Shown here piece after piece: positions 6,358-55,990 of a DNA stretch of 64,000 nt. Origin of the DNA: Candidatus Saccharimonadales bacterium (GTDB taxonomy: Bacteria; Chloroflexota; Dormibacteria; Aeolococcales; Aeolococcaceae); the NCBI GenBank assembly GCA_035534875.1, contig DATLRB010000013.1, forward strand, positions 101,315 to 165,314, given 5' to 3'. Under the pieces are notes generated by a model. The model was given only the letters and a program-made list of their open reading frames with translations. It was not told the DNA's origin and ran no database searches. The position numbers and the translations under genes were made by a program. Position 1 is the stretch's first letter; every line of letters begins with the position of its first letter.

Positions 6358-6392
6358 GCTGCGTCGACCTCCTCGTCACGTGTTGACACGGT

Positions 6393-39379: not shown

Positions 39380-40321
39380 CTACTCGCTGCCCAGTGGTAT
39401 CTCGAGCGACGCTCGCCAATCCGGGCTGTGCAGGAAGGCTTTGAACGCGCTGGCCGCGGGGCTCAGCAGGCGATCGCGCGCCCAGGTCACATGCCACATC
39501 CGCTCCACCGGAAATCCGTCCACCCGCAGCGGTCTCAACAGCCCGAGCTGGAGCTCGAGGCGAACCGCGTACGTCGACAGCACGGTGACACCCAGGCCAC
39601 CGGCGACGGCGCGCTTCAGGGCGCCGTTGCTCGCCATCTCCATGGCGGGAATCGGTTCGGCGCCGGCGCTGCGCAGGATCCGTTCGGCGGACTCGCGCGT
39701 GCCCGATCCGCGTTCGCGCAGCAACAGTGGCCCGTCGAGCAGGTCGATGGGTTGCAGGGGTTCGCGTTCCGCCAACGGATGGCCGGGAGCGCAGAAGCAC
39801 ATCAACGAGTTCTCGAGAAACGGCTCGGCCGCGAGCACCTCGTCCTCCCACAGCGTCCCGATGACGCCGACGTCTGCCACGCCCTCCAGAAGCAGTTCGC
39901 GCACCTGTACCCGGTTGACGACGTCGAGGCTGAGCGCGACGCCGAGGTGCTCGCGATGGAAAGCCGCCATCGCGTCCGGGAGCACGTAGATCCCGACTGT
40001 GGTGTCACCCGCGACGCGCACCCTCCCGGCCCGGAGGCCGGCCACATCCTCGATGGCTTCCTGCGCGTCACCGATCATCGCCAGGATGCGACCGGCGCGC
40101 TCGTGAAGCGCCTGCCCAACCGCGGTGAGCACGGGAGCCCGGCTCCCCGGATCCAGGAGCGGCTGGCCCACCGCCCGCGCAAGGGCCTGCATCTGATGAG
40201 TCACGGCCGGCTGCGTCAGGGAGAGCGCCTCAGCGGCGCGGGTGAAGCTGCGGTGCTCGATGACGCTCATGAAGATTCGCAGCTGGCGGAGCGTGATGCT
40301 CCGTTCGAGGTTGGTATCCAT
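39380..40321 (-). CDS. cbbR: LysR-family transcriptional regulator, probable CbbR
   Basis: LysR HTH LRQLRIFMSVIEHRSFTRAAEALSLTQPAVTHQMQAL plus an effector domain. Divergently transcribed from prk-cbbLSX, the classical CbbR position. Confidence 0.85.
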   Translation of the reverse strand: MDTNLERSITLRQLRIFMSVIEHRSFTRAAEALSLTQPAVTHQMQALARAVGQPLLDPGSRAPVLTAVGQALHERAGRILAMIGDAQEAIEDVAGLRAGRVRVAGDTTVGIYVLPDAMAAFHREHLGVALSLDVVNRVQVRELLLEGVADVGVIGTLWEDEVLAAEPFLENSLMCFCAPGHPLAEREPLQPIDLLDGPLLLRERGSGTRESAERILRSAGAEPIPAMEMASNGALKRAVAGGLGVTVLSTYAVRLELQLGLLRPLRVDGFPVERMWHVTWARDRLLSPAASAFKAFLHSPDWRASLEIPLGSE

Positions 40322-40423
40322 TAGACAATCTTATTGAAGAAATAGAAATCATGCATTGGACGGCAGTATGCCGACGTTCTATGGTCCATCCATGGTTGAT
40401 CTCCCGCGCGACCGGCGAACGCG
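40321..40423. promoter_or_regulatory. Divergent cbbR / prk-cbbLSX control region
   Basis: The only AT-rich stretch in this neighbourhood (TTAGACAATCTTATTGAAGAAATAGAAATCATGCATTGG). TTAGACAATCTTA at 40321-40333 fits the TNA-N7-TNA pattern described for CbbR/LysR boxes. Confidence 0.5.
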
Positions 40424-42918
<2,495 letters not shown>

Positions 42919-42929
42919 GGAGCACGCAG

Positions 42930-43352
42930 ATGCACGTCACCCAGGGAACGTTCTCCTACCTTCCTCCGCTCACCGACGCACAGGTGAAAGCGCAGGTGCA
43001 GTACGCGCTCGACAACGGTTGGGCGCTCTCGGTGGAATTCACCGACGACCCACACCCGCGCAACTTCCTCTGGGACATGTGGGGACTTCCCATGTTCGAT
43101 CTGCGCGATCCCGCAGCGATCCTGCTCGAGGTACAGCGCTGCCGCGACACGTATCCGGCACGCTACATCCGAGTCAACGCATACGACCGCACGCTCGGAC
43201 GCCAGACCACCGCGCTCAGCTTCATCGTGCAGCGCCCGAAGAACGAGCCGGGCTTCCGGCTGGACCGTCAGGAGGGTGCCGACCGGCAGGTCCGCTACAC
43301 CCTGCACGCATACGCGGCCGACCGCCCCCCCGGCGAGCGGTACGACGACTGA
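42930..43352 (+). CDS. cbbS: RuBisCO small subunit
   Basis: [61 protein letters not shown] lies 8 nt upstream of ATG 42930. Embedded in a longer spurious track ORF (42309..43352). Confidence 0.95.
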
Positions 43353-43355
43353 GCT

Positions 43356-44396
43356 GTGACCCAGGACGCTCACGTCCCCTTCGGGATGCCCCGCCCTTCG
43401 GCGCTCGATCTCGCCACGTCGGTTCCGGAGATGGTGGCCGGGAACGGTGATGCCGCGCCCTCCGACGTGGAGTCAGGAGATGCGGCCGGCGCGGGTGTCA
43501 ATGTCGAAGCAGAGGCTCGGGACTCCGGCGTGTTCGAGGTGATCGACGACCTCGACCGCGAGCTCGTCGGGCTGGATCCCGTCAAGACCCGGATCCGCGA
43601 GATCGCCTCGCTGCTCGTCGTCGACATGGCGAGGCGGCGTTTCGGGCTCGAGGCGGAACGGCCGAACCTGCACATGTGCTTCACCGGGAGCCCTGGCACT
43701 GGCAAGACCACCGTCGCGATGCGCATGGCAGCGGTGCTGCACCGTCTCGGCTATCTCGCCAGGGGACACCTCGTTGCGGTCACGCGCGACGAGCTCGTCG
43801 GACAGTACATCGGGCACACCGCGCCGAAGACGCGCGAGATCCTGAAACGCGCCATGGGCGGTGTGCTCTTCATCGATGAGGCGTATTACCTCCACCGTCA
43901 GGAGAACGAACGTGACTACGGCCAGGAGGCGATCGAAATCCTGTTGCAGGTCATGGAGAACCAGCGCAGTGACATCGTCGTGATCCTGGCGGGATACCGC
44001 GACCGCATGGACCAGTTCTTCAGCAGCAACCCCGGCATGGGATCACGGATCGCGCACCACATCGACTTCCCCGACTACGACCTGGATTCGCTGGTCGCGA
44101 TCGCGCGGATCATGCTTGACCGTCAGCGGTACACCTTCTCGGCCGGCGCCGAGCCGGCGTTTCGGGAGTTGATGTCGCGGCGCATGACCCAGCCCCGGTT
44201 TGCGAACGCGCGCAGCGTGCGCAACGCCCTGGAGCGGGCGCGGCTGCGCCAGGCCAACCGGCTCGTCTCGGACGGGAGGCTCCTGACCCGCGACGATCTG
44301 ATGCGCATCGACGCGGAGGACATCTACAAGAGCCGATGGTTCAGCGAAGCCCCCGACGAGGCGATGCTCGACGAGCGAATCCTGCCCGCCGGCTAG
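43356..44396 (+). CDS. cbbX: CbbX-type AAA+ RuBisCO activase
   Basis: Walker [10 protein letters not shown], Walker [31 protein letters not shown]. Directly follows cbbS, as in red-type operons. N-terminal ~45 aa extension. Confidence 0.9.
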
Positions 44397-44480
44397 ACGG
44401 TGACGTTGCGTTTGATCGGCGGGTCGACGAACCCGGTGGTCGTCCGCTCGCATCACTTCAGCGCGCTCGCGGACCTTCGC

Positions 44481-45626
44481 TCAGCAGATCCTCGGCAGGG
44501 GGTCTCCGATCAGCATGTCGACGACGCGGGTGCCGCCGAAGCTCGTGTGGATGAAGACCATGCCTTCAGGATCGGCCATCACCTCGCCGATCACGGCTGC
44601 CTCGGCGCCCTCGGGGCGGGAGCGCATGAGGTCGAGGGCGCGCGACGCATGCTCGCGTGCGACGACGGCGACCAGCTTGCCCTCATTGGCGATGTACAGC
44701 GGATCGATCCCGAGGATCTCGGCAACCCCGCGCACCTCGTCGTGGACCGGAAGCGAGTCCTCGTCGATGGCCACGGCCACTCCGGCAGCCTGGGCGATCT
44801 CGTTGAGCACAGTCGCAACACCGCCCCGGGTCGCGTCCCGCATGAAATGCACGTCGATGCCGTCGGCGAGGAGTGCCGCGGTCAATCCGTGCAGGGGCAT
44901 GGTGTCGCTGCGCAGGTTGTCGGCCTCGAGGTCCACGTCGCCGCGGGCGAGCATCACGGTGGCGCCGTGATCGCCCATCGCGCCGCTGAGAATCACAACG
45001 TCGCCCGGCGCGACCCGCTGGATCGCGGCACGCTGTGGGAGCGGAACGACCCCAACCCCCGTCGTCGTGATGAAGAGCTGGTCGGCCTTGCCGCGGGGCA
45101 CCACCTTGGTGTCACCGGTGACCACGTTGACGCCGGCGCGGTCGGCGGCCCGGCGCATCGATTCGACAACCCTGCGCAGCACCGCCACGTCCAGCCCCTC
45201 CTCGAGGATGAACGCGGCCGAGATGCCGAGCGTGGTCGCGCCCCCGACCGCAAGGTCGTTGATGGTGCCGTTGACGGCGATTTCGCCGATGTCCCCTCCC
45301 GGGAAGAAGAGCGGGCTGACCACGAATGAGTCGGTCGTGACCGCCAGGCCGATGTGGTCCACGCCCGGGAGCACGAGCACGGCCTGGTCTCCGAGCTGGT
45401 CGAGCACCGGGTTGCTGAGGATGTCGCCGAAGAGCGCGGTCACGAGCGTGTGACTCGCCTTGCCTCCGGCGCCGTGACTCATGGTGATCGCGTCCTCACG
45501 CAGTGTCGGCTTGCGCTTGCGAATCTCCGCGATGCGCTCGAGGACTCGCTGCTCGGGGTCGGCGATCCGCGCTGACTTCGCTCTGATCGCGGCACCACTT
45601 CCAGGTTGGACGACGGTGTCGGTCAT
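44481..45626 (-). CDS. hypE: Hydrogenase maturation protein HypE
   Basis: MSHGAGGKASH motif, AIR-synthase-like domains, C-terminal GDPLPRIC (thiocyanate-carrying Cys). Start overlaps the hypD stop. Confidence 0.93.
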   Translation of the reverse strand: MTDTVVQPGSGAAIRAKSARIADPEQRVLERIAEIRKRKPTLREDAITMSHGAGGKASHTLVTALFGDILSNPVLDQLGDQAVLVLPGVDHIGLAVTTDSFVVSPLFFPGGDIGEIAVNGTINDLAVGGATTLGISAAFILEEGLDVAVLRRVVESMRRAADRAGVNVVTGDTKVVPRGKADQLFITTTGVGVVPLPQRAAIQRVAPGDVVILSGAMGDHGATVMLARGDVDLEADNLRSDTMPLHGLTAALLADGIDVHFMRDATRGGVATVLNEIAQAAGVAVAIDEDSLPVHDEVRGVAEILGIDPLYIANEGKLVAVVAREHASRALDLMRSRPEGAEAAVIGEVMADPEGMVFIHTSFGGTRVVDMLIGDPLPRIC

Positions 45627-46837
45627 CGCGCCTGCACCGGAATGGGTCGCAGGTCACGCTCGGCGACGGCTGTACCGGCATAGCCGTTGCCATCGCCACC
45701 GGCATGCTCGCCCGACGCCAGCACCCGCTCGCGCTCACGCGCTCGCGAGTACCTGCCGAAGTTGTAGTACGCGGCGCAGGCTCCCTCGGACGACACCATG
45801 CAGGTGCCGATAGGCGTTTCCGGCGTGCACGCCGTGCCGAACACCTTGCACTCCCACGGCTTGAGGACGCCCTTGAGGACTTCCCCGCACTGGCATGCCT
45901 TGGGGTCGGCGACGCGGACACCGGGAACGGAGAACACCTTCTCGGCGTCGTAGTGGGCGAACTCGTCCTGCAGTTCGAGGGCACTCTGGCTGATGAACCC
46001 GAGGCCGCGCCACTCGAAGTGCGAGCGCAACTTGAACACGCGCGCGAGGACCTCGAGCGCCTTGGGATTGCCGTCGTCGTGCACCACGCGCTTGTACTGG
46101 TTCTCGACCTCGCAGCGCCCTTCACGGATCTGCCGGATGATCATGTGCACGCCCTGGAGGATGTCGAGTGGTTCGAATCCGACAATGACCACCGGCTTGT
46201 TGTAGTTGCTGGTCACGAACTCGAATGGCCTGATCCCCACGACGGTGGAGACGTGGCCTGGGCCGAGGAAACCGTCGAGCTGCACGTCCGGCGAGTCGAG
46301 GATCGCCTTCAACGGCGGAATGATCGTGACGTGGTTGCAGAACACAAAGAGATTGCGAATCCCCTCCGCTTTGGCACGCATCAAGGTCAGCGCCGTCGAC
46401 GGTGCCGTGGTCTCGAAGCCGATCGCATAGAAGACGACCTTGCGATCCGGGTTCTGCTGGGCGATCTTGAGCGCGTCGAGCGGCGAGTACACCATGCGCA
46501 CATCGGCACCGGCAGCCTTGGCGTCGAGCAGGCTGCCCTCGCTGCCCGGGACGCGCATGAGGTCGCCGAAGCAGGTGAAGATGACTCCCGGCTCATGGGC
46601 GACCGCGATGCCGTCGTCGAGACGGCCCATGGGAATCACGCAGACCGGGCATCCGGGTCCGTGCACCAGCTCGACGTTGCCCGGCAACAGGTCCTCGATG
46701 CCGTACTTGAAGATCGTGTGTGTGTGCCCACCACACACCTCCATGATCTTCCAGTGCTTGTCTCCTGACTCGGCTCCGATTCGCGCACCCAGAGCCCGAG
46801 CGATGTCCGCGTCGCGGAACTCGTCTGCGAACTTCAT
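45623..46837 (-). CDS. hypD: Hydrogenase maturation protein HypD
   Basis: MKFADEFRD, MEVCGGHTH, VHGPGCPVCV, GFETTAP, C-terminal Cys cluster ...CTPETPIGTCMVSSEGACAAYY. ATG 46837 overlaps the hypC stop (ATGA). About 35 aa C-terminal tail. Confidence 0.93.
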   Translation of the reverse strand: MKFADEFRDADIARALGARIGAESGDKHWKIMEVCGGHTHTIFKYGIEDLLPGNVELVHGPGCPVCVIPMGRLDDGIAVAHEPGVIFTCFGDLMRVPGSEGSLLDAKAAGADVRMVYSPLDALKIAQQNPDRKVVFYAIGFETTAPSTALTLMRAKAEGIRNLFVFCNHVTIIPPLKAILDSPDVQLDGFLGPGHVSTVVGIRPFEFVTSNYNKPVVIVGFEPLDILQGVHMIIRQIREGRCEVENQYKRVVHDDGNPKALEVLARVFKLRSHFEWRGLGFISQSALELQDEFAHYDAEKVFSVPGVRVADPKACQCGEVLKGVLKPWECKVFGTACTPETPIGTCMVSSEGACAAYYNFGRYSRARERERVLASGEHAGGDGNGYAGTAVAERDLRPIPVQAR

Positions 46838-47160
46838 GACGGCTTTCCGTTGCCCTCGCGATAGTCGGCACCGACGAGCCCGTCCTCCATTGCCTGCCAC
46901 TCGCGGATCTGCTCGACCTCGTCGGTATACGCGGAGCCCATCTCCTCGAGAATGCGCAAGGTCTCAGCCGCCTCGGTCTCGCTGACCCGGCTCAGCGCGA
47001 AACCGACATGCACGAGCACGTACTCGCCGGGCTCGGTGGCGTCCTCACCCACCAGCAGCGATGTGTTGATCCGACGCTGGACTCCGCCGAGTTCGACCTT
47101 GCCGTACAGGCGATCCTCGTCGACGTACTCGACGAGACGGGCTGGAATCGCTAGGCACAT
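46834..47160 (-). CDS. hypC: Hydrogenase maturation chaperone HypC
   Basis: Canonical N-terminus MCLAIPARLVE and the ...GEYVLVHVGFAL core. Confidence 0.9.
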   Translation of the reverse strand: MCLAIPARLVEYVDEDRLYGKVELGGVQRRINTSLLVGEDATEPGEYVLVHVGFALSRVSETEAAETLRILEEMGSAYTDEVEQIREWQAMEDGLVGADYREGNGKPS

Positions 47161-47828
47161 GCCGGCTCTCCTTCAAGTGCACGTAGCACCAACTCGGCGA
47201 GGAGGTGATAGAGCGTCATCTGGACCTCCTGAATCCGGTGGACGCTGCTGGATCGAACGATGAAGCAATGCTCGGTGACCTGTTCGCGAGCAAGACGTCC
47301 TCCGTCGTACCCGCAGATCGCGATGGTGCTCATGCCCCTGCGCCGGGCTTCGCCGAGCCCGCGGACGAGGTTCTCCGAATTGCCGCTGGTCGACACGGCG
47401 AGCACGACGTCGTCGGGCCGCCCCAGGGCGATGATCTGACGGACGAACACATCCCCGAATCCGACGTCGTTGCCGATAGCGGTGATCACCGCAATGTCGT
47501 TGGTGAGGCAGATCGCGGGGATCGGTCGACGGCCGCCGGACGGAACGAGCATTTCGGTCACCATGTCCGCCGCCGAGGTGGCGCTGCCGCCGTTGCCGAG
47601 CGCCAGCAGCCTCCCCTCTTTCTGAAAAGCGGCCGCCATCTCATCGGCGGTCCGGACGATCTCATCGCCGAATTCGTCGAGCAATTCCAGGCGGAGGCGG
47701 TTGCTCTCCGCGGATTTTTCGATCGGTGCGCTCGCCAGTTCGAGGATGAGGTCGTCGCCCGCGGCCGGCTGAGGGCGCAACATCGGGTAGAGCAGCTGCG
47801 AGAACGGGTCGCGTCCGGATTGCGTCAC
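47151..47828 (-). CDS. SIS-domain protein, GmhA (phosphoheptose isomerase)-like
   Basis: LGNGGSATSAADM, GNDVGFGDVFVRQ, STSGNSENL, RIQEV all match the GmhA pattern. GTG 47828 overlaps the stop of the upstream HypC-like gene (GTGA); the track start is TTG 47852. Confidence 0.85.
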   Translation of the reverse strand: MTQSGRDPFSQLLYPMLRPQPAAGDDLILELASAPIEKSAESNRLRLELLDEFGDEIVRTADEMAAAFQKEGRLLALGNGGSATSAADMVTEMLVPSGGRRPIPAICLTNDIAVITAIGNDVGFGDVFVRQIIALGRPDDVVLAVSTSGNSENLVRGLGEARRRGMSTIAICGYDGGRLAREQVTEHCFIVRSSSVHRIQEVQMTLYHLLAELVLRALEGEPACA

Positions 47829-48052
47829 GCGCCCGCCTCCACCGGATCGCAACGCTGCAGGGCGACGCCTCCGTGACAGAGGAGCACATCGCCGATGGTG
47901 ACGCCGTCGAGCAGATCCGTGCCGACTTCGGCTCCCAATCCGTTGATCGTGCCCCGAGCGGTGCCCGCGGCTTTGTCGACACCGGTGACCAATATGGTGA
48001 GGAGCTGGTCAGAACAGGTGATGCACATCTCGTCGTGACACTCGGCGCTCAT
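47825..48052 (-). CDS. HypC/HupF-family paralog with Cys-x-x-Cys N-terminus
   Basis: (MSAECHDE)MCITCSDQLLTILVTG...GDVLLCHGGVALQR aligns with the HypC fold. ATG 48052 overlaps the stop of the upstream SIS gene (ATGA). The internal ATG 48028 would give the usual Met-Cys N-terminus. Confidence 0.7.
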   Translation of the reverse strand: MSAECHDEMCITCSDQLLTILVTGVDKAAGTARGTINGLGAEVGTDLLDGVTIGDVLLCHGGVALQRCDPVEAGA

Positions 48053-48681
48053 GCGATGTCTCCAATACCACGGTGGTTGAGCACGATGTGCACGAGCTCC
48101 CAGAGCATGTGATACGTCGCCAGGTGCAGCTCGTGTGCTGCTTCTCGGTCTGACCCGTCCACGTGAAACACGAAGTCCGGGTGCTCCCCCGCGATCGGGT
48201 CGCCCGATGTCAGCGCGATGGTGAGCATGCCCACGGCCGCGCCGGCGGCGAGCCCACGGGTGATCGACGGGTGCATCGGTGCATGTGCGAACGCGAGTGC
48301 GATGTCGCCGGCGCGGCCGAGAACACGCACTTGATGTGCGTACACTTCCTCGGCAGCGTCTCCCTGGAGGATGTCGGTGACGGTCGCCATATCGTTGGTC
48401 AGGGACAGGGCCGGCAGGGCGCGGCATCCCGGCAGAACCGGATGGACGAACTCGACTGAGTTGTGCTGAGCGTCGGTCGCATGCGGACCCGAGCCGAAGA
48501 CCAGAAGCGTTCCGCCGGCGAAAAAACGATCCGCCATCGCCGCCGAGCATGCCGCGATCGCATGCGCGTAATGACCGAAGTACGCATCGCCGGATTGATT
48601 CGACGCCTTGACACGCGCATCGAGCAAGGCGCGACCGGTGGCGACGGCCGCATCGCGGTCAGGTCGCATCTGCACACTCAC
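48049..48681 (-). CDS. Degenerate SIS/GmhA-like protein
   Basis: Aligns with GmhA over its length (GGTLLVFGSGPHATDAQHNSVEF; TNDMATVT; ...LHLATYHMLWELVHIVL) but carries AFAHAPMHPS in place of STSGNS. GTG 48681 begins 1 nt after the hypF stop. Confidence 0.7.
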   Translation of the reverse strand: MSVQMRPDRDAAVATGRALLDARVKASNQSGDAYFGHYAHAIAACSAAMADRFFAGGTLLVFGSGPHATDAQHNSVEFVHPVLPGCRALPALSLTNDMATVTDILQGDAAEEVYAHQVRVLGRAGDIALAFAHAPMHPSITRGLAAGAAVGMLTIALTSGDPIAGEHPDFVFHVDGSDREAAHELHLATYHMLWELVHIVLNHRGIGDIA

Positions 48682-48682
48682 C

Positions 48683-51112
48683 TCACGTCACCTCTCGAGC
48701 CTGTGAAGCCGCCACGAGCGCCTGCCCCAGGCTGATGCCGCCGTCGTTGGCAGGGACCTGTTGGTTGGCGTACACGAATAGTTCGCGCTCGCGCAACATG
48801 CGCTCGACCCGATTGAGCAGCAGGACATTCTGAAAGACACCACCACCGAGCGCGATGCGATCAACGCCGAGCTCAGAACTCAGCCGCACGCACATGCTGA
48901 CGATGCCACAGGCCAGGCTCTGGTGAAAGATGGCGGCGAGCGCCTCTGGCGATCGTCCTCGCTGCCGCGCCTGAAACAATGTCCGCACCAGGCCGACGGT
49001 GTCGAGAACCAGCGGATCACCGCCGAGCACAACGTCGAGGTGCTCGCCACCGGCCAGATCCCCGGCCGCGGCCGCGAGCGCCTCCAGACGCATCGCGGCC
49101 TCGGCCTCGAACGTCGACACATGTGCCACCCCGAGCAGGCTGGCAACACCATCGAAGAGCCGGCCCGCGCTCGTGGTGATCGGAGCCGCCTCCGAGGTGG
49201 CCAGGCGGGACACGAGTCGCCAATGACGTTGGTTGGGTGCACCGGCGACATCGTCGAACCAGGGGGGTGGCGTCTCGCCGAGCGCGCCGGCAGCCGCAAG
49301 ATACGCGATCGCCATACGCCACCCCTCTCGAGCGCAAGCATCGCCACCAGGCTGGCGGACGGCTGCGATGTGGCCCACGCGACAGTACGACCGCTCGTCA
49401 CAAAGCAGGAACTCTCCGCCCCAGATCGTGCTGTCGGGCCCGAGGCCTGCGCCATCGAACGCGACTCCGAGCACGGCGCCGCGCAGGCCGTGTTCCGCGA
49501 GCACGCTGGCGATGTGCGCGTGGTGGTGCTGCACGCCCACGGAGCGCGCATCCGAATCCCACCACCGCTCCGCGATGCGGGTCGATGCGTAGTCAGGATG
49601 GAGGTCGGCGGCGACGGCGGTGGGCGTTGCCCGGAAAAGACGGAGGTACGTGCGCAGCGCCTCGTCCTGATGGCCCAGCGTCCGTGGGCTGTCCAGATCG
49701 CCGATATGTGGCCCCATGAAGGCGTTGCCCCCGTTGAGCACGCAGAACGTGTTCTTGAGGTGCGCGCCGAGCGCCAGCACCGAGGCCCCGTTCGAGTCGA
49801 CGCGAACCGGCAGCGGGCAGTATCCCCGGGCGCGACGGATCATCCGTGGCGTTCCGTCAACGACGCGGACCACCGAGTCGTCATAGCGGGCGTAGATCTC
49901 GCGATCGTGGAGCAGAAAGGCGTCTGCAATGTGACCGAGCCGCTCCACGGCCTCGTCGTTGGCTTTCGCGATCGGCTCCTCGCTGACGTTGCCACTGGTC
50001 GTCACCAGCAACCGCCGCGTGGCGCGCAGGAGGAGATGATGCATCGGCGTGTAAGGAAGCATCACGCCGAGCTCCTCGAGGCCCGGCGCAACGGGACCGG
50101 CGACGGCGTCGCGAACATGTCGCCGTTTGAGCAGGACGATCGGGCGCACCGAGCCTTCGAGGAGCTCTGCCTCCGCGTCGCTCACGACGCAGACTTCGCG
50201 CGCCGCGGCGATGTCGGGGCACATCACCGCGAACGGCTTGGCAGGCCGATGCTTACGATCCCGCAGCCGTTGCACAGCGGCATCTTCGGTCGCGTCGCAG
50301 CAGAGTTGGAAACCGCCCAGCCCCTTGAGCGCGACGATCTCCCCCCGAGCTATCGCGGCGGCCGCGAGGTCGATCGGATCGCCCGAGAGCTCGGTCCCTT
50401 CCGCGTTGGCATACCAGAGACGCGGACCGCAGGCAGGACACGCGTTCGGCTGCGCGTGAAAGCGGCGATTCGACGGGTCCTCGTACTCCCGCGTGCAGGC
50501 CGCGCACATCGCGAAATGCCGCATGGTCGTGAGCGGACGGTCGTACGGAATATCCTCGATGATCGTGAACCGTGGACCGCAGTTGGTGCAGTTCGTGAAC
50601 GGGTATCCGTGTCGCCGGTCGGCGGGGTCGAGGATGTCCTCGACGCAGTCGGGACAGGTCGCCGCGTCGGGCGCGATGGACTGATAGTCGCCCTCGACCG
50701 CGCGGCTCTCGACGATTCGAAAGCCCCGCTCGCCGGTTGCCGCCACGTACGCGGTCTCGACCGACTCAATCCGGGCGAGACGAGGTGCGTTGTCGCGCAA
50801 CGCGATCACGAACGCGTCGAGCACGCGCCGCTCACCCTCGACCTCGATGAGCACCGCTCCCGACGTGTTGTAGATCAGACCGCCGAGTCCAAGCCCGGTC
50901 GCAAGGTTCCAGACGAAGGGCCGGAAGCCGACCCCCTGCACCACGCCGCGAACCGCGAGACGCCGCCGCTCAGGCGCGCCATGATCAGGTGCGTTCACAC
51001 CCGCCGGGCGGCTCGTCGGTGGCCGGGTCGCGACGCTCAAGGGCTCACGCTGCGCGCAGATGCTCAGCGGTCGAACTGAATCGCTCCTTGCGCGCCCGGG
51101 TCCCGAGCACAT
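48683..51112 (-). CDS. hypF: Carbamoyltransferase HypF
   Basis: Acylphosphatase domain (VRGVVQGVGFRPFVWNLA) and two zinc fingers (CPDC...CTNCGPRF; CAAC...CPACGPR), followed by YrdC-like and Kae1-like domains. Alternative start GTG 50998 would give a more typical ~770 aa. Confidence 0.93.
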   Translation of the reverse strand: MCSGPGRARSDSVRPLSICAQREPLSVATRPPTSRPAGVNAPDHGAPERRRLAVRGVVQGVGFRPFVWNLATGLGLGGLIYNTSGAVLIEVEGERRVLDAFVIALRDNAPRLARIESVETAYVAATGERGFRIVESRAVEGDYQSIAPDAATCPDCVEDILDPADRRHGYPFTNCTNCGPRFTIIEDIPYDRPLTTMRHFAMCAACTREYEDPSNRRFHAQPNACPACGPRLWYANAEGTELSGDPIDLAAAAIARGEIVALKGLGGFQLCCDATEDAAVQRLRDRKHRPAKPFAVMCPDIAAAREVCVVSDAEAELLEGSVRPIVLLKRRHVRDAVAGPVAPGLEELGVMLPYTPMHHLLLRATRRLLVTTSGNVSEEPIAKANDEAVERLGHIADAFLLHDREIYARYDDSVVRVVDGTPRMIRRARGYCPLPVRVDSNGASVLALGAHLKNTFCVLNGGNAFMGPHIGDLDSPRTLGHQDEALRTYLRLFRATPTAVAADLHPDYASTRIAERWWDSDARSVGVQHHHAHIASVLAEHGLRGAVLGVAFDGAGLGPDSTIWGGEFLLCDERSYCRVGHIAAVRQPGGDACAREGWRMAIAYLAAAGALGETPPPWFDDVAGAPNQRHWRLVSRLATSEAAPITTSAGRLFDGVASLLGVAHVSTFEAEAAMRLEALAAAAGDLAGGEHLDVVLGGDPLVLDTVGLVRTLFQARQRGRSPEALAAIFHQSLACGIVSMCVRLSSELGVDRIALGGGVFQNVLLLNRVERMLRERELFVYANQQVPANDGGISLGQALVAASQAREVT

Positions 51113-51172
51113 GAGCGATCCCGAAGATCACGAGCTCCTCAAGTAGTGCATTCCACTCCGCGTTCCGTGTCG

Positions 51173-51685
51173 CTACGACTGCCGTTCGGCCACGATGTGG
51201 ACCTGCAGATCCACCTCCGGCTCCACCTTGAGAATGATCAAACGCGGAGGATCGATGCCGAAGTCCTTGACGTTGATCACCTGCTGCCCGTCGATCGTCA
51301 TCGTTGTTCCGTCGACGCTGAGATGCAGGTCCCCATTGATCTCTCGCGTCTGGCCGTGCATGGTGAGCTGCGCCGCCGCACGGTAGTGACCGTCGGCGTC
51401 CAGTGCTTCACCGTGAGTGACTTTGGCGGTGATCGTCGGATAGCGCGAGACGTCGAATCGCCGGCGCATCTCCCGATCCTGGATGCCGTTTCCCGACTTG
51501 ATGGCATCGACCGGCAGTGTCAACTCGGCACTGTAGGGCTGGTCGAGGCGAGGTCTCCCCTGCTCGTCGACCTCACACTCGATCACACCGCTGAGCGCGT
51601 TGGCGTTGATGTGCGACGGGTGAAGGTTGACTCTCAGGCCGACTTTGACCGTCGTCTGGGCGGTGTTCACTCGGAAGCGCGGCAT
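51173..51685 (-). CDS. YceI-like family protein
   Basis: Beta-barrel-type pattern with DAIKSGNGIQDREMRRRFDVSRYPTITAKV, the YceI signature region. Lies 60 nt upstream of hypF on the same strand. Confidence 0.75.
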   Translation of the reverse strand: MPRFRVNTAQTTVKVGLRVNLHPSHINANALSGVIECEVDEQGRPRLDQPYSAELTLPVDAIKSGNGIQDREMRRRFDVSRYPTITAKVTHGEALDADGHYRAAAQLTMHGQTREINGDLHLSVDGTTMTIDGQQVINVKDFGIDPPRLIILKVEPEVDLQVHIVAERQS

Positions 51686-51755
51686 ACCAGTCTCTCGTCC
51701 GTCCTACATCGACCGGATCTTCAGATACCGCTGAATGGTGCGCTGCGAGTGGCGA

Positions 51756-52106
51756 TCACTCCGTCTCATCGTGATCCACGTCGGAGTCGCTCGAGGAAAC
51801 CGGCGCCGGTCGGCGCCTGTAGAGAACGTGGATCGATGCAACTCGTCGCTGGATCCTCCGATCGAGGTGGCCGGTCACGCCGTTCGAAGCGGCGGGAAGG
51901 GTGACGCCGACGTGGGTCGGTGTTCGATCCTTGGCAACCGCCATATAGCCAATGGCCTGCAGCGCCGCCTCATCCCTCCCGTACTCCGCCAGGTCGACGT
52001 AGTGCCGCACGATGGCCTCGGGGAAGGCGTCATGGCGGACCATTCGCCGGACATCGCGCGTGTTGAACCAGTCTCGGATCGAGCCCGCAACTCTGATCGC
52101 TGCCAC
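51756..52106 (-). CDS. Small hypothetical protein, paralog of 20426..20758
   Basis: GTG 52106 preceded by AGGAGG. Shares the conserved blocks listed for 20426..20758. Acidic C-terminal tail. Confidence 0.6.
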   Translation of the reverse strand: MAAIRVAGSIRDWFNTRDVRRMVRHDAFPEAIVRHYVDLAEYGRDEAALQAIGYMAVAKDRTPTHVGVTLPAASNGVTGHLDRRIQRRVASIHVLYRRRPAPVSSSDSDVDHDETE

Positions 52107-52166
52107 GAGACCTCCTGCGGCTCCACGCCCATGGATGGTTCAGAGCATACCTTGTGGCGTCGCGCG

Positions 52167-52955
52167 CTATCCCGCGAACGGCCACCGCGCCGCACCGAGC
52201 TCCCGCGATACCCCGCGCGCCGCCTCGACCACCGCCGTGGAGAGGCCGCGCGCGGGACCGCGGGGAAACACCCGATCCGTGTCCCCCACGACGGCGATGG
52301 CCCCGACGGCATTGCCGGCGCGATCGATGATCGGGGCCGCGATGCTCGACTCACCGAGCACGGCCTCGTCCCGCTCGGTCGCGATTGCCTGGAGCCGGAT
52401 GGTGTTCAACTGAATGCGCAGCGCCGCGGCGTTCGGTGTTCGCTTGGTCAGCCGCTCCAGCGGCGCCGACAGTAGATTGTCGATGGTGTCGCCGGGCGCG
52501 AAGGCGAGCAGCGCCTTGCCGAGAGCGCTCGCGTGCAGCGGAAGCTGCGATCCGACCTCGAGGATCTGCAGTGTCGCGTCGGGACGAAAGACGTGGTGCA
52601 CGACCACCGCGGTGGGGCCGTGCATCACACCGACGCGAACGGCGAACTTGGTGCGAACGGCAAGTTGTGCGGCGTAGGTGATCGAGCGGGAGCGCAACTC
52701 GTTGACGTCGAGGTACGAGTACCCGAGTTGCAGCAGGCCCGCACCCAGCTGGTACTTCTCCGAGACGCGATCCTGCTCGACGAATCCCTGGGCGAGCAGC
52801 GTCTGCAGGAGCCCGTGCACCGTGGGACGCGCGAGGCCGAGCCTGTCGGCAAGCTCGCTGACACCCAACCTCCCAGGACCGCCCGCGAGCGCCTTGAGAA
52901 TCGCGGCAGCGCGATCGACGGACTGGATGCTCGTCGGTCGCCGGCTATTCGGCAT
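52167..52955 (-). CDS. IclR-family transcriptional regulator
   Basis: N-terminal HTH (IQSVDRAAAILKALAGGPGRLGVSELADRLGLARPTVHGLLQTL) plus an IclR effector domain. About half of its residues match the second IclR at 60561..61340. Divergent from dhaM. Confidence 0.88.
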   Translation of the reverse strand: MPNSRRPTSIQSVDRAAAILKALAGGPGRLGVSELADRLGLARPTVHGLLQTLLAQGFVEQDRVSEKYQLGAGLLQLGYSYLDVNELRSRSITYAAQLAVRTKFAVRVGVMHGPTAVVVHHVFRPDATLQILEVGSQLPLHASALGKALLAFAPGDTIDNLLSAPLERLTKRTPNAAALRIQLNTIRLQAIATERDEAVLGESSIAAPIIDRAGNAVGAIAVVGDTDRVFPRGPARGLSTAVVEAARGVSRELGAARWPFAG

Positions 52956-53006
52956 TGCTGAATTATGGTCGAGGATGTAGACTAGTTGGAATTCTGAACC
53001 GACCGC

Positions 53007-53411
53007 GTGACAGCGAGGGAAGTCGTGGCTGTCGGGATTGTACTGGTCTCACATAGCCCACAGTTGGCTGAGGGGCTTGCCCTTCTCGCCGGCCAGATGG
53101 CGGGGCCGGACGTCCATATCGAGGCGGCAGGCGGCGACCGTGACGGCGGTCTCGGCACTTCGGACACCCTCGTTCGCACGGCGATCGAGCAAGCCGACCA
53201 GGGTGACGGGGTGCTCCTGCTCTGCGACCTGGGGAGCGCTATTCTCACCGTGCGCGACGTGCTCGGCGGCAACGGCAACGGCCATGTCCGCCTCGTTGAC
53301 GCTCCGTTCGTTGAGGGCGCCGTGGCGGCTGCTGTGGTTGCGTCGTCGGGGGCACCGCTTGACGAGGTGGCCCGAGCTGCCGAGGAGGCGCGCGATGCTC
53401 GCAAGCTCTGA
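53007..53411 (+). CDS. dhaM: PTS-dependent dihydroxyacetone kinase phosphotransferase subunit DhaM (EIIA-Man-like domain only)
   Basis: VGIVLVSHSPQLAEGL (phospho-His context), DLGSAILT. Single ~130 aa EIIA domain. Alternative start GTG 53025. Confidence 0.85.
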   Translation: MTAREVVAVGIVLVSHSPQLAEGLALLAGQMAGPDVHIEAAGGDRDGGLGTSDTLVRTAIEQADQGDGVLLLCDLGSAILTVRDVLGGNGNGHVRLVDAPFVEGAVAAAVVASSGAPLDEVARAAEEARDARKL

Positions 53412-53664
53412 GGCCGCCATGACCCTCCCGGACGGCGTCGCGCTCCACGCCCGTCCAGCTGCGCTGTTTGTCCGCACCGCCATGCGCTTCCGCTCGAAAA
53501 TCGTCGTCGCCGCGAACGGGCGTGACGCCGACGCCAAGAGCATCCTCAGCGTGCTCGGGCTCGGTGCAACCGCAGGCACCATCCTGCTCGTACGTGCGGA
53601 GGGGGAGGATGCGGCGGATGCGCTTGACGCTCTCGCGGAGTGTCTAGCCGGCGTCGTCGAGTAA
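53395..53664 (+). CDS. ptsH: Phosphocarrier protein HPr
   Basis: GVALHARPAALF (His-15 motif), ADAKSILSVLGLG (Ser-46 region). ATG 53395 is preceded by GAGGAGG; ATG 53419 is also possible. Confidence 0.85.
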   Translation: MLASSEAAMTLPDGVALHARPAALFVRTAMRFRSKIVVAANGRDADAKSILSVLGLGATAGTILLVRAEGEDAADALDALAECLAGVVE

Positions 53665-55332
53665 CAGGCGGAGCGGGCGCTCCAGGGACTCCACCTCGGC
53701 TGCGGACTCGGCTTCGAGCGCCCGACGTGCGATGCGCGAGGCTTCGCCATAGTCTAGGGCGCGCACCCACGCGCGAACACGCGCAACCGCCGCGGCGCCG
53801 ACACTGAGCTCGTCAACCCCCAACCCGACCAGGAGCGGCATCACCACCGGATTCGACGCCGCCTCGCCGCAGATCTCGACCGGGATGCCTGCCGCACGAG
53901 CGGCGTCAACGGTATCGGCCACCAGTTGGAGCACCGCCGGGTGGTGTGCGGGCGAACCACCCGGCCGCGTCCGGTCGATGCCGAGCTGGAAGCTGGTCAG
54001 GTCGTTGGTGCCGATGCTGAACATCCCCACCTCAGGAGCAATCCGGTCCGCCATCGCGGCGGCTGCGGGAACCTCGACCATCGCGGCAACGACTGGCACC
54101 CGCTTCCCCCGCCGGGCTGCGATCGGCTCGATGACGGCTCGCACGGCGCGCACCTGACCGGGCTCGGTGACCATAGGGATCAGCACGCGCAGCTCGGTGG
54201 CGTCGCCGGTCTCGAGGATCGCCTCCAGCTGCCACGCGAGCGCCTCGGTATCCTCCAGGAGGAGCTCAACCCCGCGTCCGTACACTCCTTTAAGAAAGGG
54301 GGGCGTCTTGTCGCCTCCGAAATCCAGGAGGCGCACCGTCGCCGTCATTCCTTTGAGCTGAGCCAGCGCGGGATTGAGCGTGCGACGGTGTTCGGCGACG
54401 GTCGGCCAGTGCTGCGCCTCCAGAAACGCGAGTTCGGTGCGCAGGAGGCCAACCCCGTCGGCACCCGCCTCGAGCGCGGCGCGAACCTCGGCCGGGGTGG
54501 CGGCATTGGCAAGGACGCGAACCGTCCGGCCGTCACGGGTCACCGTTGGGAGCGTTCGAGCCGCCAAGGCTCGATCTCGCGACTCGCGGGCGGCCACGAT
54601 AGCCTGCCGCACCATGTCGACCCGCTCCGGATCCGGAGATGCGATGACGGTGCTCCGGTCCCCGTCGACGATGCAGCGCTCGCCTTCCGCCAGCGAGAGG
54701 ATGGCCGGTCCCAGGCCGACGACCATTGGAAGACCCAATCCGCGAGCAACGATCGCCGCATGGCCGGTGACGCCTCCGACCGCGAGGGCGATGCCGCGCA
54801 CATCGCCGTCGAGCTCGATGACGTCCGCAGGCCCGAGGTCGGACGCGACCAGAATCGTGTCGCCGTCGGTGCTTCGATCGGCACGTGCCGGGTCGCCAGA
54901 TGCGAGTCGCGACGCGCGCCGCGCCAGGCTTCTGACATCCGCCGCCCGCGCGGCAAGCTCGGGATCCCCGAGCAGATCCAGCCGAGCCGCGATCGCCTCC
55001 GCCTCGACTCGAATCGCGCTCGCCGCAGGAAGGCCACGCGTCAGCACGGCGCTCTCGACGGCTTCGACGAGCACCGGGTCCTCCGCCATCATCATCCCGG
55101 CATCCAGAATGTCAGCCTCGTCGGTCCGGCCCTGAGATCGAAGCCCGGCCGCGAGTTCGTCCAGCTGGTGAGCCGATCTCGCGAGCGCGTCGAGCGCTCG
55201 GGACGCCGCCGCCGGCCGCGCGCCGTCATCGAGGACGCCGGCGTCGGTCTCGCCGTCGTCGTCGAGACGCCGGACCAGTCCGAACGCCGTCCCCGGTGAC
55301 GCCGGAACGCCAGCGAGCACTCGCTCGGTCAT
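53644..55332 (-). CDS. ptsI: Phosphoenolpyruvate-protein phosphotransferase (PTS enzyme I)
   Basis: Phospho-His region GGVTGHAAIVARGLGLPMVVG, PEP-utilising TIM barrel with FSIGTNDLTSFQLGIDR. The start directly abuts the dhaL stop (TAAATG). Confidence 0.93.
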   Translation of the reverse strand: MTERVLAGVPASPGTAFGLVRRLDDDGETDAGVLDDGARPAAASRALDALARSAHQLDELAAGLRSQGRTDEADILDAGMMMAEDPVLVEAVESAVLTRGLPAASAIRVEAEAIAARLDLLGDPELAARAADVRSLARRASRLASGDPARADRSTDGDTILVASDLGPADVIELDGDVRGIALAVGGVTGHAAIVARGLGLPMVVGLGPAILSLAEGERCIVDGDRSTVIASPDPERVDMVRQAIVAARESRDRALAARTLPTVTRDGRTVRVLANAATPAEVRAALEAGADGVGLLRTELAFLEAQHWPTVAEHRRTLNPALAQLKGMTATVRLLDFGGDKTPPFLKGVYGRGVELLLEDTEALAWQLEAILETGDATELRVLIPMVTEPGQVRAVRAVIEPIAARRGKRVPVVAAMVEVPAAAAMADRIAPEVGMFSIGTNDLTSFQLGIDRTRPGGSPAHHPAVLQLVADTVDAARAAGIPVEICGEAASNPVVMPLLVGLGVDELSVGAAAVARVRAWVRALDYGEASRIARRALEAESAAEVESLERPLRLLLDDAG

Positions 55333-55965
55333 TTAAGGAGTGCTCGCTACCGTCCGTTCCAGGGCGCGGATGATCATCGCGGTCGACGTGGCTCCGGGGT
55401 CCTGATGGCCGATGGAGCGTTCGCCGAGGTACGACGCTCGCCCCTTTCGCGCCTGCATCGGGATGGTGGCGCGCATACCTGCCTCAGCCGCTTCAGAAGC
55501 GGAGCGCAGCATCTCCCCGCTCGAGGCGCCCCGCGCAAGCCCCTCTCGCATCGCGGTCACCGCCGGCTGCAGCGCATCGACCATGGTCTTGTCACCCGGC
55601 ACCGCTGCCCCGAGGTCTTGAATCGAGGCCAATGCCGCCGCCATCGCCTCGACCAATTGGGCGAGATCGAAGGTCGGTTCCTCTCCAAGGGCACGCCCCG
55701 CCTTGCGCAGCGCCGACCCCCAGAGTGGACCGCTGGCACCCCCGACAGTGGACACGAGCGTCTTCCCCGAGAGGATCAACAGCTTGCCGGGTGTGCCATC
55801 GGTCTCGGTGCTCAACACCAGCGTCACGGCGTCGAACCCACGATTCATGTTGATGCCGTGGTCGCCATCGCCGATCGCCGCGTCGAGCTGGACCAGATAG
55901 TCCCGCTCGGCGCGGACCGATGCGGCGATCTCGTTCATCCATGCGGTGACGGTCTGCGCGTCCAT
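55333..55965 (-). CDS. dhaL: Dihydroxyacetone kinase ADP-binding subunit DhaL
   Basis: LDAAIGDGDHGINMNRG, GGASGPLWG, GDKTMVDAL motifs. ATG 55965 preferred over track start 56064. Confidence 0.9.
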   Translation of the reverse strand: MDAQTVTAWMNEIAASVRAERDYLVQLDAAIGDGDHGINMNRGFDAVTLVLSTETDGTPGKLLILSGKTLVSTVGGASGPLWGSALRKAGRALGEEPTFDLAQLVEAMAAALASIQDLGAAVPGDKTMVDALQPAVTAMREGLARGASSGEMLRSASEAAEAGMRATIPMQARKGRASYLGERSIGHQDPGATSTAMIIRALERTVASTP

Positions 55966-55990
55966 TGCTATAGCGACCGCCACGATAGCA

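Follow-up and report, generated by a model that had tools for sequence, protein, structure and literature searches.

What are two proteins of the GmhA (phosphoheptose isomerase) fold and a second HypC-like protein doing in the middle of an operon for [NiFe]-hydrogenase maturation? The question is raised by a 64-kb stretch of DNA from a Candidatus Saccharimonadales bacterium (GTDB class Dormibacteria; GenBank assembly GCA_035534875.1, contig DATLRB010000013.1, positions 101,315 to 165,314), hereafter called the window, whose own positions serve as coordinates throughout. On its minus strand, at 44481-51685, lie in order a YceI-like gene, hypF, SIS-2, a short HypC-like gene (HypC'), SIS-1, hypC, hypD and hypE. 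We propose, with a probability of about 60%, that the three genes between hypF and hypC encode one complex of [NiFe]-hydrogenase maturation, which would act as a ligand-binding accessory scaffold for O2-insensitive, high-affinity uptake enzymes. The hydrogenases that it would serve are of group 1h in sister genomes and belong to 2a-type clusters elsewhere.

Genes of this kind have been drawn before. A gmhA gene is shown without a function in the hydrogenase cluster of Frankia (PMC11879354), where the "hypothetical protein" preceding it is probably a SIS2::HypC' fusion, and gmhA or phosphoheptose isomerase genes, likewise without a function, appear in group 1h/2a clusters of Acidobacteria (PMC5900883) and A. 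ferrooxidans (PMC7735108) and in a neighbourhood survey (PMC12727194). An earlier, sequence-only reading of the window had mentioned function-less gmhA-like open reading frames (ORFs) in actinobacterial-type clusters, correctly so (PMC11879354, PMC5900883, PMC7735108). The paralogue pair, its complementary site, the HypC' family, the fusions and experiments on them were not found in the literature searched, mostly without subscription journals. In a review of cofactor biosynthesis from 2025, the origin of CO figures among the unanswered questions and GmhA or SIS proteins go unmentioned (PMC12134894); a 2024 paper treats the iron source as unresolved as well (PMC10847431).

A three-gene module of hydrogenase clusters

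SIS-2 (48049-48681, minus strand) encodes a GmhA-fold protein of 210 residues, or 206 if Met5 is the start, that matches Pfam SIS_2 at 4e-9. HypC' (47825-48052, minus strand) encodes a 75-residue protein with a HypC-derived OB fold (Pfam HupF_HypC, 3e-7, 30.9 bits, just above the gathering score of 28.5), and SIS-1 (47151-47828, minus strand) a second GmhA-fold protein, of 225 residues, matching SIS_2 at 1.9e-18 and SIS at 5.8e-11. Profile searches thus return SIS_2 for both SIS proteins and HupF_HypC for HypC', in line with how the three had first been read. The genes are tightly packed: the GTG start of SIS-2 at 48681 lies 1 nucleotide past the hypF stop (48683-48685), the SIS-2 stop and the HypC' start overlap in the ATGA at 48049-48052, the HypC' stop and the SIS-1 start overlap in the GTGA at 47825-47828, and SIS-1 and hypC overlap by 10 nucleotides (47151-47160). 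The ORFs, coordinates and junctions of the trio are as originally described, and every peptide string quoted at that time is present in the translations. Third-position GC of the trio genes (0.74-0.81) is similar to that of the flanking genes, and homologues of their products number in the hundreds, indicating that they are genuine genes and not chance ORFs. For each of the three, the nearest relatives are encoded in genomes of Candidatus Dormibacterota.

A scan with a SIS-2 profile, taking one genome per species, yielded at least 592 relatives among the first 600 matches listed in species-representative genomes, the single-SIS type of proteobacteria (see below) included. We annotated the best 80 loci, i.e., those most similar to the query, with our own hidden Markov models (HMMs), together with 10-kb flanks. 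Their sources are Dormibacterota, many Actinomycetota, Chloroflexota (Ktedonobacter among them) and one Gemmatimonadales genome, and all 80 are [NiFe]-hydrogenase/hyp clusters, mostly of group 1h. The sequence-only reading had supposed an accessory maturation module, for example one for an O2-tolerant uptake hydrogenase, which a trio without synteny to hyp genes in related genomes would have contradicted. Synteny with hyp and hydrogenase genes was found in 80 of the 80 loci, which supports an accessory module linked to Hyp maturation of O2-insensitive uptake enzymes. HypD is encoded within 10 kb in 70 of the loci and a hydrogenase large subunit in 53, the group 1h enzyme of C. necator being the best-matching reference for these 53 large subunits (73-84% identity in the listed examples). 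The large subunits in a Gemmatimonadales (L025), an Actinophytocola (L028) and an Anaerolineales (L072) locus are only ~40-42% identical to the group 1h reference; given this divergence, the module probably also accompanies at least one other hydrogenase group.

The layout of the trio is conserved as well. Three ORFs are present in 72/80 loci, and in 71 of these 72 they are strictly adjacent, in the order SIS2, HypC', SIS1; the other loci carry a SIS2::HypC' fusion plus SIS1 (3/80), a SIS2::SIS1 fusion (4/80) or no detected HypC' (1/80). The genes abut in nearly all loci, the median distance from the SIS2 stop to the CxxC codon being 46 nucleotides. In Dormibacterota and Chloroflexota the trio is placed among the hyp genes, after hypF and before hypC in the former and flanked by hypC and hypD in the latter, and in many Actinomycetota it comes first in the structural operon (SIS2-HypC'-SIS1-hydS-hydL-NifU-...). 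No second large-subunit-like ORF was labelled beside the trio in the loci inspected. The window has every trait of the module: the gene order, the SIS2 motifs, C-x-T-C-[SAG]-D, LYP, GNGGS, STSGxS and R-x-Q-E. In two loci from long-read metagenome-assembled genomes (L010, L060), many cluster genes are broken into 2-4 ORF pieces, probably through frameshift errors and not biology.

A putative metal site divided between two paralogues

In GmhA, zinc is held by H61, E65 and H183 from a single monomer together with Q175 of its neighbour (PMC5387315), and the four ligands are described as completely conserved in orthologues (PMC5705639). The zinc ligands span two chains, each active site draws on three, and the sites lie in adjacent pairs with half-of-sites behaviour. 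We counted the corresponding residues in 83 loci with both paralogues (SIS-2, n = 83; SIS-1, n = 82), using the B. pseudomallei numbering His64, Glu68, Gln175 and His183. His64, Glu68 and His183 are present in 83/83 SIS-2 proteins and Asp61 in 82/83. SIS-1 has Asp61 in 72/82 and His183 in 69/82, never has His64 (Asp in 47, Gln in 20, Glu in 7) and most often has Leu in place of Glu68 (Leu in 51, Glu in 11, Asp in 8). Position 175 is Gln in all 82 SIS-1 proteins and Lys (62), Gln (14) or His (6) in SIS-2, and Glu176 is common to both (82/83 in SIS-2, 82/82 in SIS-1). The phosphosugar-binding motifs GNGGS, ND and STSGxS are kept by 97-100% of SIS-1 proteins and lost from SIS-2, so that these GmhA loops are present in the pair and not in each of its proteins.

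In the window itself, the four zinc-ligand positions read Asp, Glu, Gln, His in SIS-1 and His, Glu, His, His in SIS-2. Judged from these residues, only a SIS-1:SIS-2 heteromer would rebuild an intact GmhA-type metal site, because SIS-2 keeps the His/Glu/His set and SIS-1 the Gln that acts in trans; there would be one such site per pair, the reciprocal one being without the canonical ligand set. With a single intact site per SIS pair, the heteromer would resemble a hard-wired form of the half-of-sites behaviour of GmhA. The two proteins had at first been taken for an enzyme and a pseudo-enzyme. This view has to be given up: one composite site appears to be split between them, and at the metal-ligand positions SIS-2 is the more strictly conserved of the two.

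The best solved relative of SIS-1 is the GmhA structure 1X92 (E 1.2e-31), and the strings LGNGGSA, GNDVGFGDVFVRQ, STSGNSEN and RIQEV, from which SIS-1 had been credited with the GmhA signature, are all confirmed in its translation. The signature is nevertheless incomplete: in helix alpha-2, S85-A-A-D88-M-V-T-E92-M-L (47547-47576, minus strand, as are all motifs of the trio), GmhA Asp61 is replaced by Ser and the zinc ligand His64 by Asp88, while E92 corresponds to Glu68. The phosphosugar loops of the window protein are complete (residues 78-82, 119-124 and 146-151). The G78-N-G-G-S82 loop (47583-47597) is kept in 80/82 SIS-1 proteins and variable in SIS-2, and S, T, S, G and S of the phosphate-binding loop S146-T-S-G-N-S151 (47376-47393) are kept in 80-82 of 82. 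Toward the C-terminus, R198-I-Q200-E-V...L-Y-H208-L-L (47199-47237) contains Q200, equivalent to the trans Gln175, and H208, equivalent to His183; R, Q and E of R-x-Q-E occur in 82/82 proteins and the H208 equivalent in 69/82. The N-terminal L-Y-P-M-L (residues 13-17; 47778-47792), whose L-Y-P is invariant in 76 triple fusions (see below), recurs in the proteobacterial single SIS as LYPFL and is missing from GmhA; L-Y-P-[FM]-L may be a docking peptide.

The best solved relatives of SIS-2 are GmhA and DiaA, with E values of about 1e-14. Its first description as having lost the signature holds for the phosphosugar loops, in whose stead it has FGSGPHA and AFAHAPMHPS (the latter, like the quoted string FGSGPHATDAQH, is confirmed in the translation), and fails for the metal site, since Asp61, His64, Glu68 and His183 are intact in the window protein and only position 175 is changed, from Gln to His. 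Two mirror motifs stand out, H-x2-V-E-F-V-H-P in helix alpha-2 and Y-H-x-L-W-E-L-V-H in helix alpha-6, each an H-x3-E-x2-H. The first, H73-N-S-V-E77-F-V-H80-P (48439-48465), contains the equivalents of the zinc ligands His64 and Glu68 (H73 and E77) and an extra invariant His (H80). In GmhA numbering, H64, V67, E68 and H71 occur in 83/83 SIS-2 proteins and P72 in 82/83; the motif is invariant in the 76 triple fusions and falls in a helix of the AlphaFold2 model, and position 71 of bona fide GmhA is N, S or G. The second, Y190-H191-M-L-W194-E195-L-V-H198 (48088-48114), contains the equivalent of His183 (H191) and two further invariant residues, E195 and H198. Its Y, H, W, E and H are kept in 83/83 SIS-2 proteins, where GmhA has C at 186, D, A or G at 187 and D or E at 190. 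SIS-2 therefore holds three invariant ligand-type residues beyond the GmhA set, two His and one Glu, and H71, W186, E187 and H190 are shared with the proteobacterial single SIS and not with GmhA. Conjecturally, the extra ligand residues may make the metal site larger or binuclear. Strong purifying selection acts on SIS-2 at nine or more positions. A "dead" SIS-2 is ruled out by the 99-100% conservation of its metal-ligand positions and by its place as the hub of the fusions.

Relation to GmhA and to the single SIS of proteobacteria

Could SIS-1 simply be a sedoheptulose-7-phosphate isomerase that came to lie in the operon by chance, with SIS-2 as its decaying duplicate? Source databases label both proteins "D-sedoheptulose 7-phosphate isomerase" and their best solved relatives are GmhA enzymes, yet both score under every GmhA equivalog cut-off of NCBIfam (TIGR00441, NF010546, NF001628, NF010547), SIS-1 with 123.8 against 209.45, 141.5 against 276 and 106.7 against 265 and SIS-2 with 59.4 (cut-off 209), 66.2 and 31. 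SIS-1 never has His64 and usually has Leu for Glu68, and SIS-2 is selected and fused to partners. No gmhB, hldE/hddA kinase or nucleotidyltransferase gene lies beside the SIS genes in the window, the 80 loci or the plasmid loci; the gene for the true GmhA of Vibrio, by contrast, has a GHMP kinase on one side and a nucleotidyltransferase on the other, and its product is only 33.5% identical. In a neighbour-joining tree (60 bootstraps, four true GmhA outgroups), the hydrogenase-linked SIS proteins separate from GmhA in 60/60 replicates; SIS-2 (60/60) and the proteobacterial singles (60/60) each form a clade, and support for monophyly of SIS-1 is weak (23/60). A grouping of SIS-1 with heptose-pathway GmhA, which the sequence-only reading had kept in view, is thus found neither in the tree nor among the neighbours. 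Chance residence of an ordinary isomerase is close to refuted, and bona fide GmhA, or heptose synthesis, is ruled out as the identity of these proteins by residues, curated cut-offs, gene context and tree. SIS-1 and SIS-2 instead appear to be ancient paralogues within a hydrogenase-linked branch of the GmhA fold, the clades of the tree suggesting that their duplication predates the divergence of the phyla sampled.

GmhA remains the closest structural model for the pair. Its structures (1X92, 2X3Y, 5I01, 2I22) share the fold (template modelling (TM) score about 0.9, 1.5-2 A) with key residues on alpha-2 and alpha-6, and its composite zinc site and paired, half-of-sites active sites provide the template for the heteromer model. 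Unlike in GmhA, no chain of the trio has the full ligand set, H71, W186, E187 and H190 are additional, and the genomic context is hyp.

Outside the trio, the closest homologue is a single SIS protein of proteobacterial hyp operons, which are arranged as hypF-hypC-SIS-hypD-hypE in the actinobacterial-type hydrogenase cluster of C. necator and in Bradyrhizobium, Novosphingobium and Afipia. The C. necator H16 protein (pHG1, WP_011153996) is ~40% identical to SIS-1, and the type shares H-x3-E-F-x-H-P, Y-H-x-L-W-[DE]-x-x-H and the N-terminal LYPFL. Encoded between hypC and hypD, an operon position described as the same as that of the trio, it combines the residues of both halves in one chain, presumably as a homo-oligomer, and has no HypC' alongside. 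Going by these shared residues, the window would carry a duplicated and subfunctionalised version of the single SIS, joined by a HypC-like partner. On plasmid pHCG3 of Afipia/Oligotropha carboxidovorans (L091), the single-SIS operon (hypF-hypC-SIS-hypD-hypE-hypB) stands beside a HoxB/HoxC-like regulatory-type hydrogenase and a histidine kinase, a context from which it follows that hyp-linked SIS proteins may not be confined to group 1h/2a clusters.

HypC' has an OB fold and a Cys motif of its own

An alignment (hhalign) of profiles from 81 HypC' and 76 canonical HypC sequences gave a probability of 97.4% and an E value of 1.5e-11 over the OB-fold body only, which, as far as profile comparison can, confirms homology over that body. 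HypC' is not a canonical HypC: its TIGR00074 score of 20.1 bits falls below the cut-off of 48, it is without the N-terminal Met-Cys and the C-terminal helix, and it has its own C5-x4-C10-x2-C13 motif. The N-terminus reads MSAECHDEMCITCSD, with no position-2 Cys of the MC[LI][AG][IV]P type, and the chain stops directly after the OB fold, where canonical HypC runs 20-45 residues further. The strings on which the first comparison of the two relied, MCITCSD and GDVLLCHGGVAL in HypC' and MCLAIP in hypC, are confirmed in the translations. What HypC' shares with HypC and HybG, which chaperone Fe(CN)2CO on the HypCD scaffold, is the OB-fold body, the conserved His (VH.G), a Cys-bearing segment before the first strand and the operon; what sets it apart is the internal C-x4-C-x2-C, which is mid-chain in the fusions, so that a free N-terminal Cys is impossible in fused HypC'. 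Because canonical HypC is additionally encoded in 69/80 loci, HypC' is an addition and not a replacement.

The Cys motif, C5-H-D-E-M-C10-I-T-C13-S-D (48008-48040), was counted in the 80 HypC' proteins found in 84 screened loci (the 80 scan loci, the window, L004, L006 and L007). CxxC is present as C[IV]TC[SAG]D in 80/80, a further Cys lies 4-6 residues upstream in 74/80, often followed by His (consensus PECHDDVCITCSD), and C and C-x2-C-x-D are invariant in the 76 triple fusions. The length of HypC' had been given as 67-75 residues; of the two ends of this range the longer form, from the ATG at 48052, is correct, since the family as a whole keeps the Cys-His that precedes the internal Met, and the same conservation rules out the 67-residue form starting at that Met. 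Further along, L-L-C-H60-G-G-V-A-L (47858-47884; family consensus GD.ILVHAGEAI) corresponds to the VHVGFA of HypC with its conserved His, H60 being invariant in the alignment of HypC' with HypC.

The CxxC also invites a redox reading, in which a dithiol/disulfide cycle of HypC' would keep the cysteines of HypD, HypE and HypC, or the HypD cascade, reduced in air. The Cys pair of HypD does require electrons (review PMC12134894), CxxC is the sole universally conserved feature of the HypC' N-terminus, and glutaredoxin-like genes adjoin SIS2::SIS1 in Thermus and Sulfobacillus. Such a cycle would leave the strictly conserved metal and phosphosugar residues of the SIS proteins unexplained, and the additional Cys-His upstream looks more like a metal site. 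Nor is C-[IV]-T-C-[SAG]-D, when carried by an OB fold, known as a thioredoxin-type motif, and we regard thiol protection as quite unlikely.

Natural fusions join the three proteins

In many genomes members of the trio are covalently linked. On a Mycobacterium intracellulare plasmid, SIS2::HypC' is one protein of 236 residues followed by SIS-1; Thermus thermophilus and Sulfobacillus have a SIS2::SIS1 fusion of ~390 residues, with HypC' adjoining hypC. The best 150 50%-identity representatives include ~37 SIS2::SIS1, ~16 SIS2::HypC' and ~9 triple fusions, and the best 120 90%-clusters matching one triple fusion comprise 78 triple (SIS2::HypC'::SIS1) and 42 SIS2::SIS1 proteins. One triple fusion, P0241, has hypF and hypC as its immediate neighbours and a RuBisCO operon next to it, and is positionally the three genes of the window in one frame. 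When the window proteins are concatenated in gene order, they are colinear with the natural fusions at 38-51% identity and keep every invariant column. With natural fusions in three combinations, one of them a triple between hypF and hypC, it follows from the sequences that SIS-1, SIS-2 and HypC' almost certainly form one complex. In the fusions the Cys motif lies some 15-25 residues past the end of SIS-2 helix alpha-6, which bears E195 and H198, so by chain connectivity the motif can come near the His/Glu cluster of SIS-2.

Two observations on the fused loci may be added. The SIS2::SIS1 gene of Sulfobacillus acidophilus plasmid CP003180 (L007, ~9960-11130) is missing from the PLSDB gene table and reads through only if the frame is changed close to the 3' end; it is either a pseudogene or affected by a sequencing error. 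A glutaredoxin-like gene (Uxx-star seleno/Cys) lies between SIS2::SIS1 and hypF in Thermus (L006, 11130-11390) and Sulfobacillus (L007, 11132-11359), and the published Huc cluster of Parageobacillus, seemingly without the SIS module, has a GST-N/glutaredoxin-like gene after hypE.

AlphaFold2 returned compact models for P0241 (predicted local distance difference test score, pLDDT, 88.9) and for the artificial concatenation of the window proteins (pLDDT 86.6), with a predicted TM score of 0.85, the only uncertain regions being the junction and the Cys motif. As predictions, these models support a defined assembly without describing its geometry. Foldseek searches of the PDB with the fusion model matched GmhA chains with TM scores of 0.86-0.93 and rmsd of 1.5-2 A and DiaA chains with TM ~0.87; no match to the whole three-domain arrangement was found in the PDB, only single GmhA or DiaA chains and, poorly, the tandem SIS of GlmS.

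The likeness to DiaA suggests a scaffold of another sort, free of ligands, on which HypC', HypC, HypD, HypE or the large subunit would be brought together as in an assembly line. DiaA and HobA are examples of the GmhA fold as a non-enzymatic oligomerisation platform (PMC4697000), and fusion to an OB-fold adaptor fits docking. DiaA (DnaA initiator-associating protein) is a tetramer used for protein binding, bridging several partner copies, in which the catalytic Glu is lost and replaced by Ser, and other catalytic residues vary in the non-enzymatic relatives (PMC4697000). The trio, in contrast, holds metal and phosphosugar residues under strict selection, distributed over two chains: the metal ligands of SIS-2 and the phosphate/sugar loops of SIS-1 are 97-100% conserved across phyla, which argues for bound ligands. 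A ligand-free platform is therefore unlikely.

A proposed ligand-binding scaffold for maturation in air

The ligand-binding scaffold proposed at the outset could work as follows. SIS-2 would supply the His-Glu-His metal ligands plus three further invariant residues, and SIS-1 the trans Gln and all phosphosugar-binding loops. HypC' would be tethered between the two SIS proteins, after the C-terminus of SIS-2 and before the N-terminus of SIS-1, or, in many organisms, be fused to them; its C-x4-C-x2-C/CxxC sits at the place of the iron-binding N-terminal Cys of HypC. The complex would bind a metal and a phosphorylated ligand and hold or prepare the iron unit, or a precursor of it, attached through HypC' to HypD or the apo large subunit while the cofactor is assembled in air. 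The analysis shows the genes with their synteny and fusions, the complementary residues, the fold and the distinctness from GmhA; how the heteromer is built, whether it binds metal, what the phospho-ligand is and which maturation step is served are parts of this proposal that we infer.

The proposed role would be analogous to that of known helper pairs. HupF/HupK of R. leguminosarum and HoxL/HoxV of the C. necator membrane-bound hydrogenase assist hydrogenases that mature with O2 present (PMC12134894). The logic is alike, an extra HypC-family protein with a dedicated partner; the partner differs, being large-subunit-like in those pairs and, in the trio, a pair of GmhA-fold proteins. HupF and HoxL keep the N-terminal Cys, which HypC' does not. 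Expression data place proteins of this kind with the Hyp machinery: GmhA protein rises with the Hyp proteins in A. ferrooxidans (PMC7735108), and MSMEG_2706 is co-induced with the Huc/hyp genes in M. smegmatis (PMC5445863).

Several points weigh against a ligand-binding maturation scaffold. The 80 loci of the census, being those closest to the query, over-represent actinomycetotal group 1h clusters, and the window itself is without hydrogenase structural genes. The hyp operon table published for Parageobacillus runs HypC-HypD-HypE-GST-like, with "SIS" and "isomerase" nowhere in the paper; because some 2a-type clusters, such as this one, seem to be without the module, it is not universally required. 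AlphaFold2 confidence is low at the Cys motif of HypC', which by this measure would be flexible or ligand-requiring. The phosphosugar may bind at the metal site of the heteromer, or metal and phospho-ligand may occupy two neighbouring sites; either arrangement stands, since the papers on GmhA do not say which chain supplies the phosphate loops. Finally, biochemical or genetic evidence on any protein of the trio was not found in the literature searched, in which subscription journals were thinly covered.

The same parts might also perform chemistry. In the general form of this idea, the trio would constitute a new catalytic step of [NiFe]-cofactor biosynthesis in aerobes, in which a GmhA-derived, possibly binuclear metal site acts on a phosphorylated molecule bound by SIS-1 and passes the product onto iron held by HypC'. 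We consider this improbable; if it were true, the product could be the CO ligand or iron itself, and the step would answer the question of CO without HypX or that of the iron source. A specific version is an aerobic, HypX-independent route to CO, with the SIS heteromer making an aldose or enediol from a phosphosugar and delivering a one-carbon unit as CO to the iron on HypC'. SIS-1 and the proteobacterial single SIS do keep every phosphosugar residue under strong selection, the heteromer would rebuild a Lewis-acid metal site of GmhA type, the organisms are aerobic, and the CO source outside HypX is an acknowledged open question (PMC12134894). HypX, the aerobic CO-ligand synthase, which the sequence-only reading had already noted as absent from the window, has no match there or within 10 kb in any of the 80 loci (single-sequence HMM of C. 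necator HypX, L089 13681-15474, E <= 1e-5). This absence, which covers 10-kb flanks only, is compatible with a HypX-independent route and does not show one, and C. necator H16 has hypX and a hyp-linked SIS on one plasmid. Most SIS-1 proteins have Leu in place of Glu68, which serves GmhA as catalytic base, and SIS-2 is without phosphate loops, so that a complete isomerase site would require loops acting in trans. Such chemistry is not known for the SIS fold, and the route, being pure inference, seems to us unlikely.

Genomic setting of the window

The flanking maturation genes of the minus strand are conventional. HypF, the carbamoyltransferase (48683-51112), has five HypF Pfam domains, and its translation may in fact begin about 20 codons downstream of 51112, the orthologue in a sister genome (L001) having 787 residues. 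Canonical hypC (46834-47160; MCLAIP...) scores 79.6 bits with Pfam and 73.2 bits with TIGR00074 (cut-off 48). HypD (45623-46900; Pfam HypD, 8.4e-157) probably starts near 46843, and hypE (44481-45626) has the Pfam domains AIRS and AIRS_C and the C-terminal PRIC. Upstream of hypF is a YceI-like gene (51173-51685, minus strand; Pfam YceI, 1.8e-16). This order of YceI and hypF recurs in four loci that represent the sister Dormibacterota arrangement (L001, L009, L012, L054). Genes of this polyisoprenoid-binding family are present in 5/80 loci (the L001 copy at 6264-6776). In a locus of another lineage (L093), where YceI adjoins a triple fusion, the gene (10579-11073) is upstream of hypF with an 85-residue ORF between.

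Hydrogenase structural genes, hypA, hypB, a protease gene and HypX are absent from the whole window. In sister Dormibacterota, hydS-hydL-NifU-DUF5947-DUF6084-protease-hypA-YceI lies directly upstream of hypF, and the large subunit shows ~79% identity to the C. necator group 1h enzyme. The window is without the block from hydS to hypA upstream of YceI (51686-57013, compared with L001, L009, L012 and L054); in its place are an IclR regulator (52167-52955) and PtsI/DhaM/DhaL/DhaK-like genes (53007-57013). The hydrogenase structural genes of this genome are either elsewhere in it or lost.

A plus-strand Calvin-cycle operon (39380-44396), with a divergent LysR gene, is convergent with hypE and comprises PRK (40424-41458), cbbL (41455-42918), cbbS and cbbX (43356-44396). 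RuBisCO genes also adjoin the hyp genes and the SIS module in three of the sister loci (L001, L009, L054), in L095, where they differ in lying upstream of hypF on the same strand, and on the Mycobacterium intracellulare plasmid (L004). The layout is that expected for H2-driven CO2 fixation. It raises the possibility that the module is a metabolic sensor, which would bind sedoheptulose-7-P or another intermediate of the Calvin cycle or the pentose-phosphate pathway and gate maturation by carbon status. The conserved phosphosugar loops and the RuBisCO/PRK genes beside the hyp operon in the window, sister Dormibacterota, L095 and the Mycobacterium plasmid would suit such a sensor. RuBisCO is nearby in only 3/80 loci, however, so the link is lineage-specific; the module is without a DNA-binding or signalling domain, and the HypC-like partner and the invariant metal ligands would be left unexplained. 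Sensing is accordingly very unlikely.

A promoter and terminator scan of 43800-52400 gave results at chance level, uninformative for a high-GC organism that is not E. coli. A 1291-residue ORF at 32895-36770 joins two ABC-transporter halves in one protein, which has two transmembrane domains and two ATPase domains and is unrelated to the trio.

Implications for hydrogenase biology

The copy in the window is an ordinary member of a widespread module, and the interest lies in the module, not in this instance. Group 1h/2a hydrogenases allow soil bacteria to live on atmospheric H2, and the enzymes mature in air; in Dormibacterota, such hydrogenases beside RuBisCO power "atmospheric chemosynthesis". 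Few genes of group 1h/2a clusters are co-located as consistently as those of the module. What has been a vague "gmhA" arrow in cluster maps becomes a testable object, namely, a three-part complex with named residues and a single composite metal site predicted per heteromer. The natural single-chain versions should express easily, and M. smegmatis and C. necator are tractable hosts. The trio also offers a clean example of the site of an oligomeric enzyme split between paralogues, and its genes may be needed for heterologous production of O2-insensitive hydrogenases.

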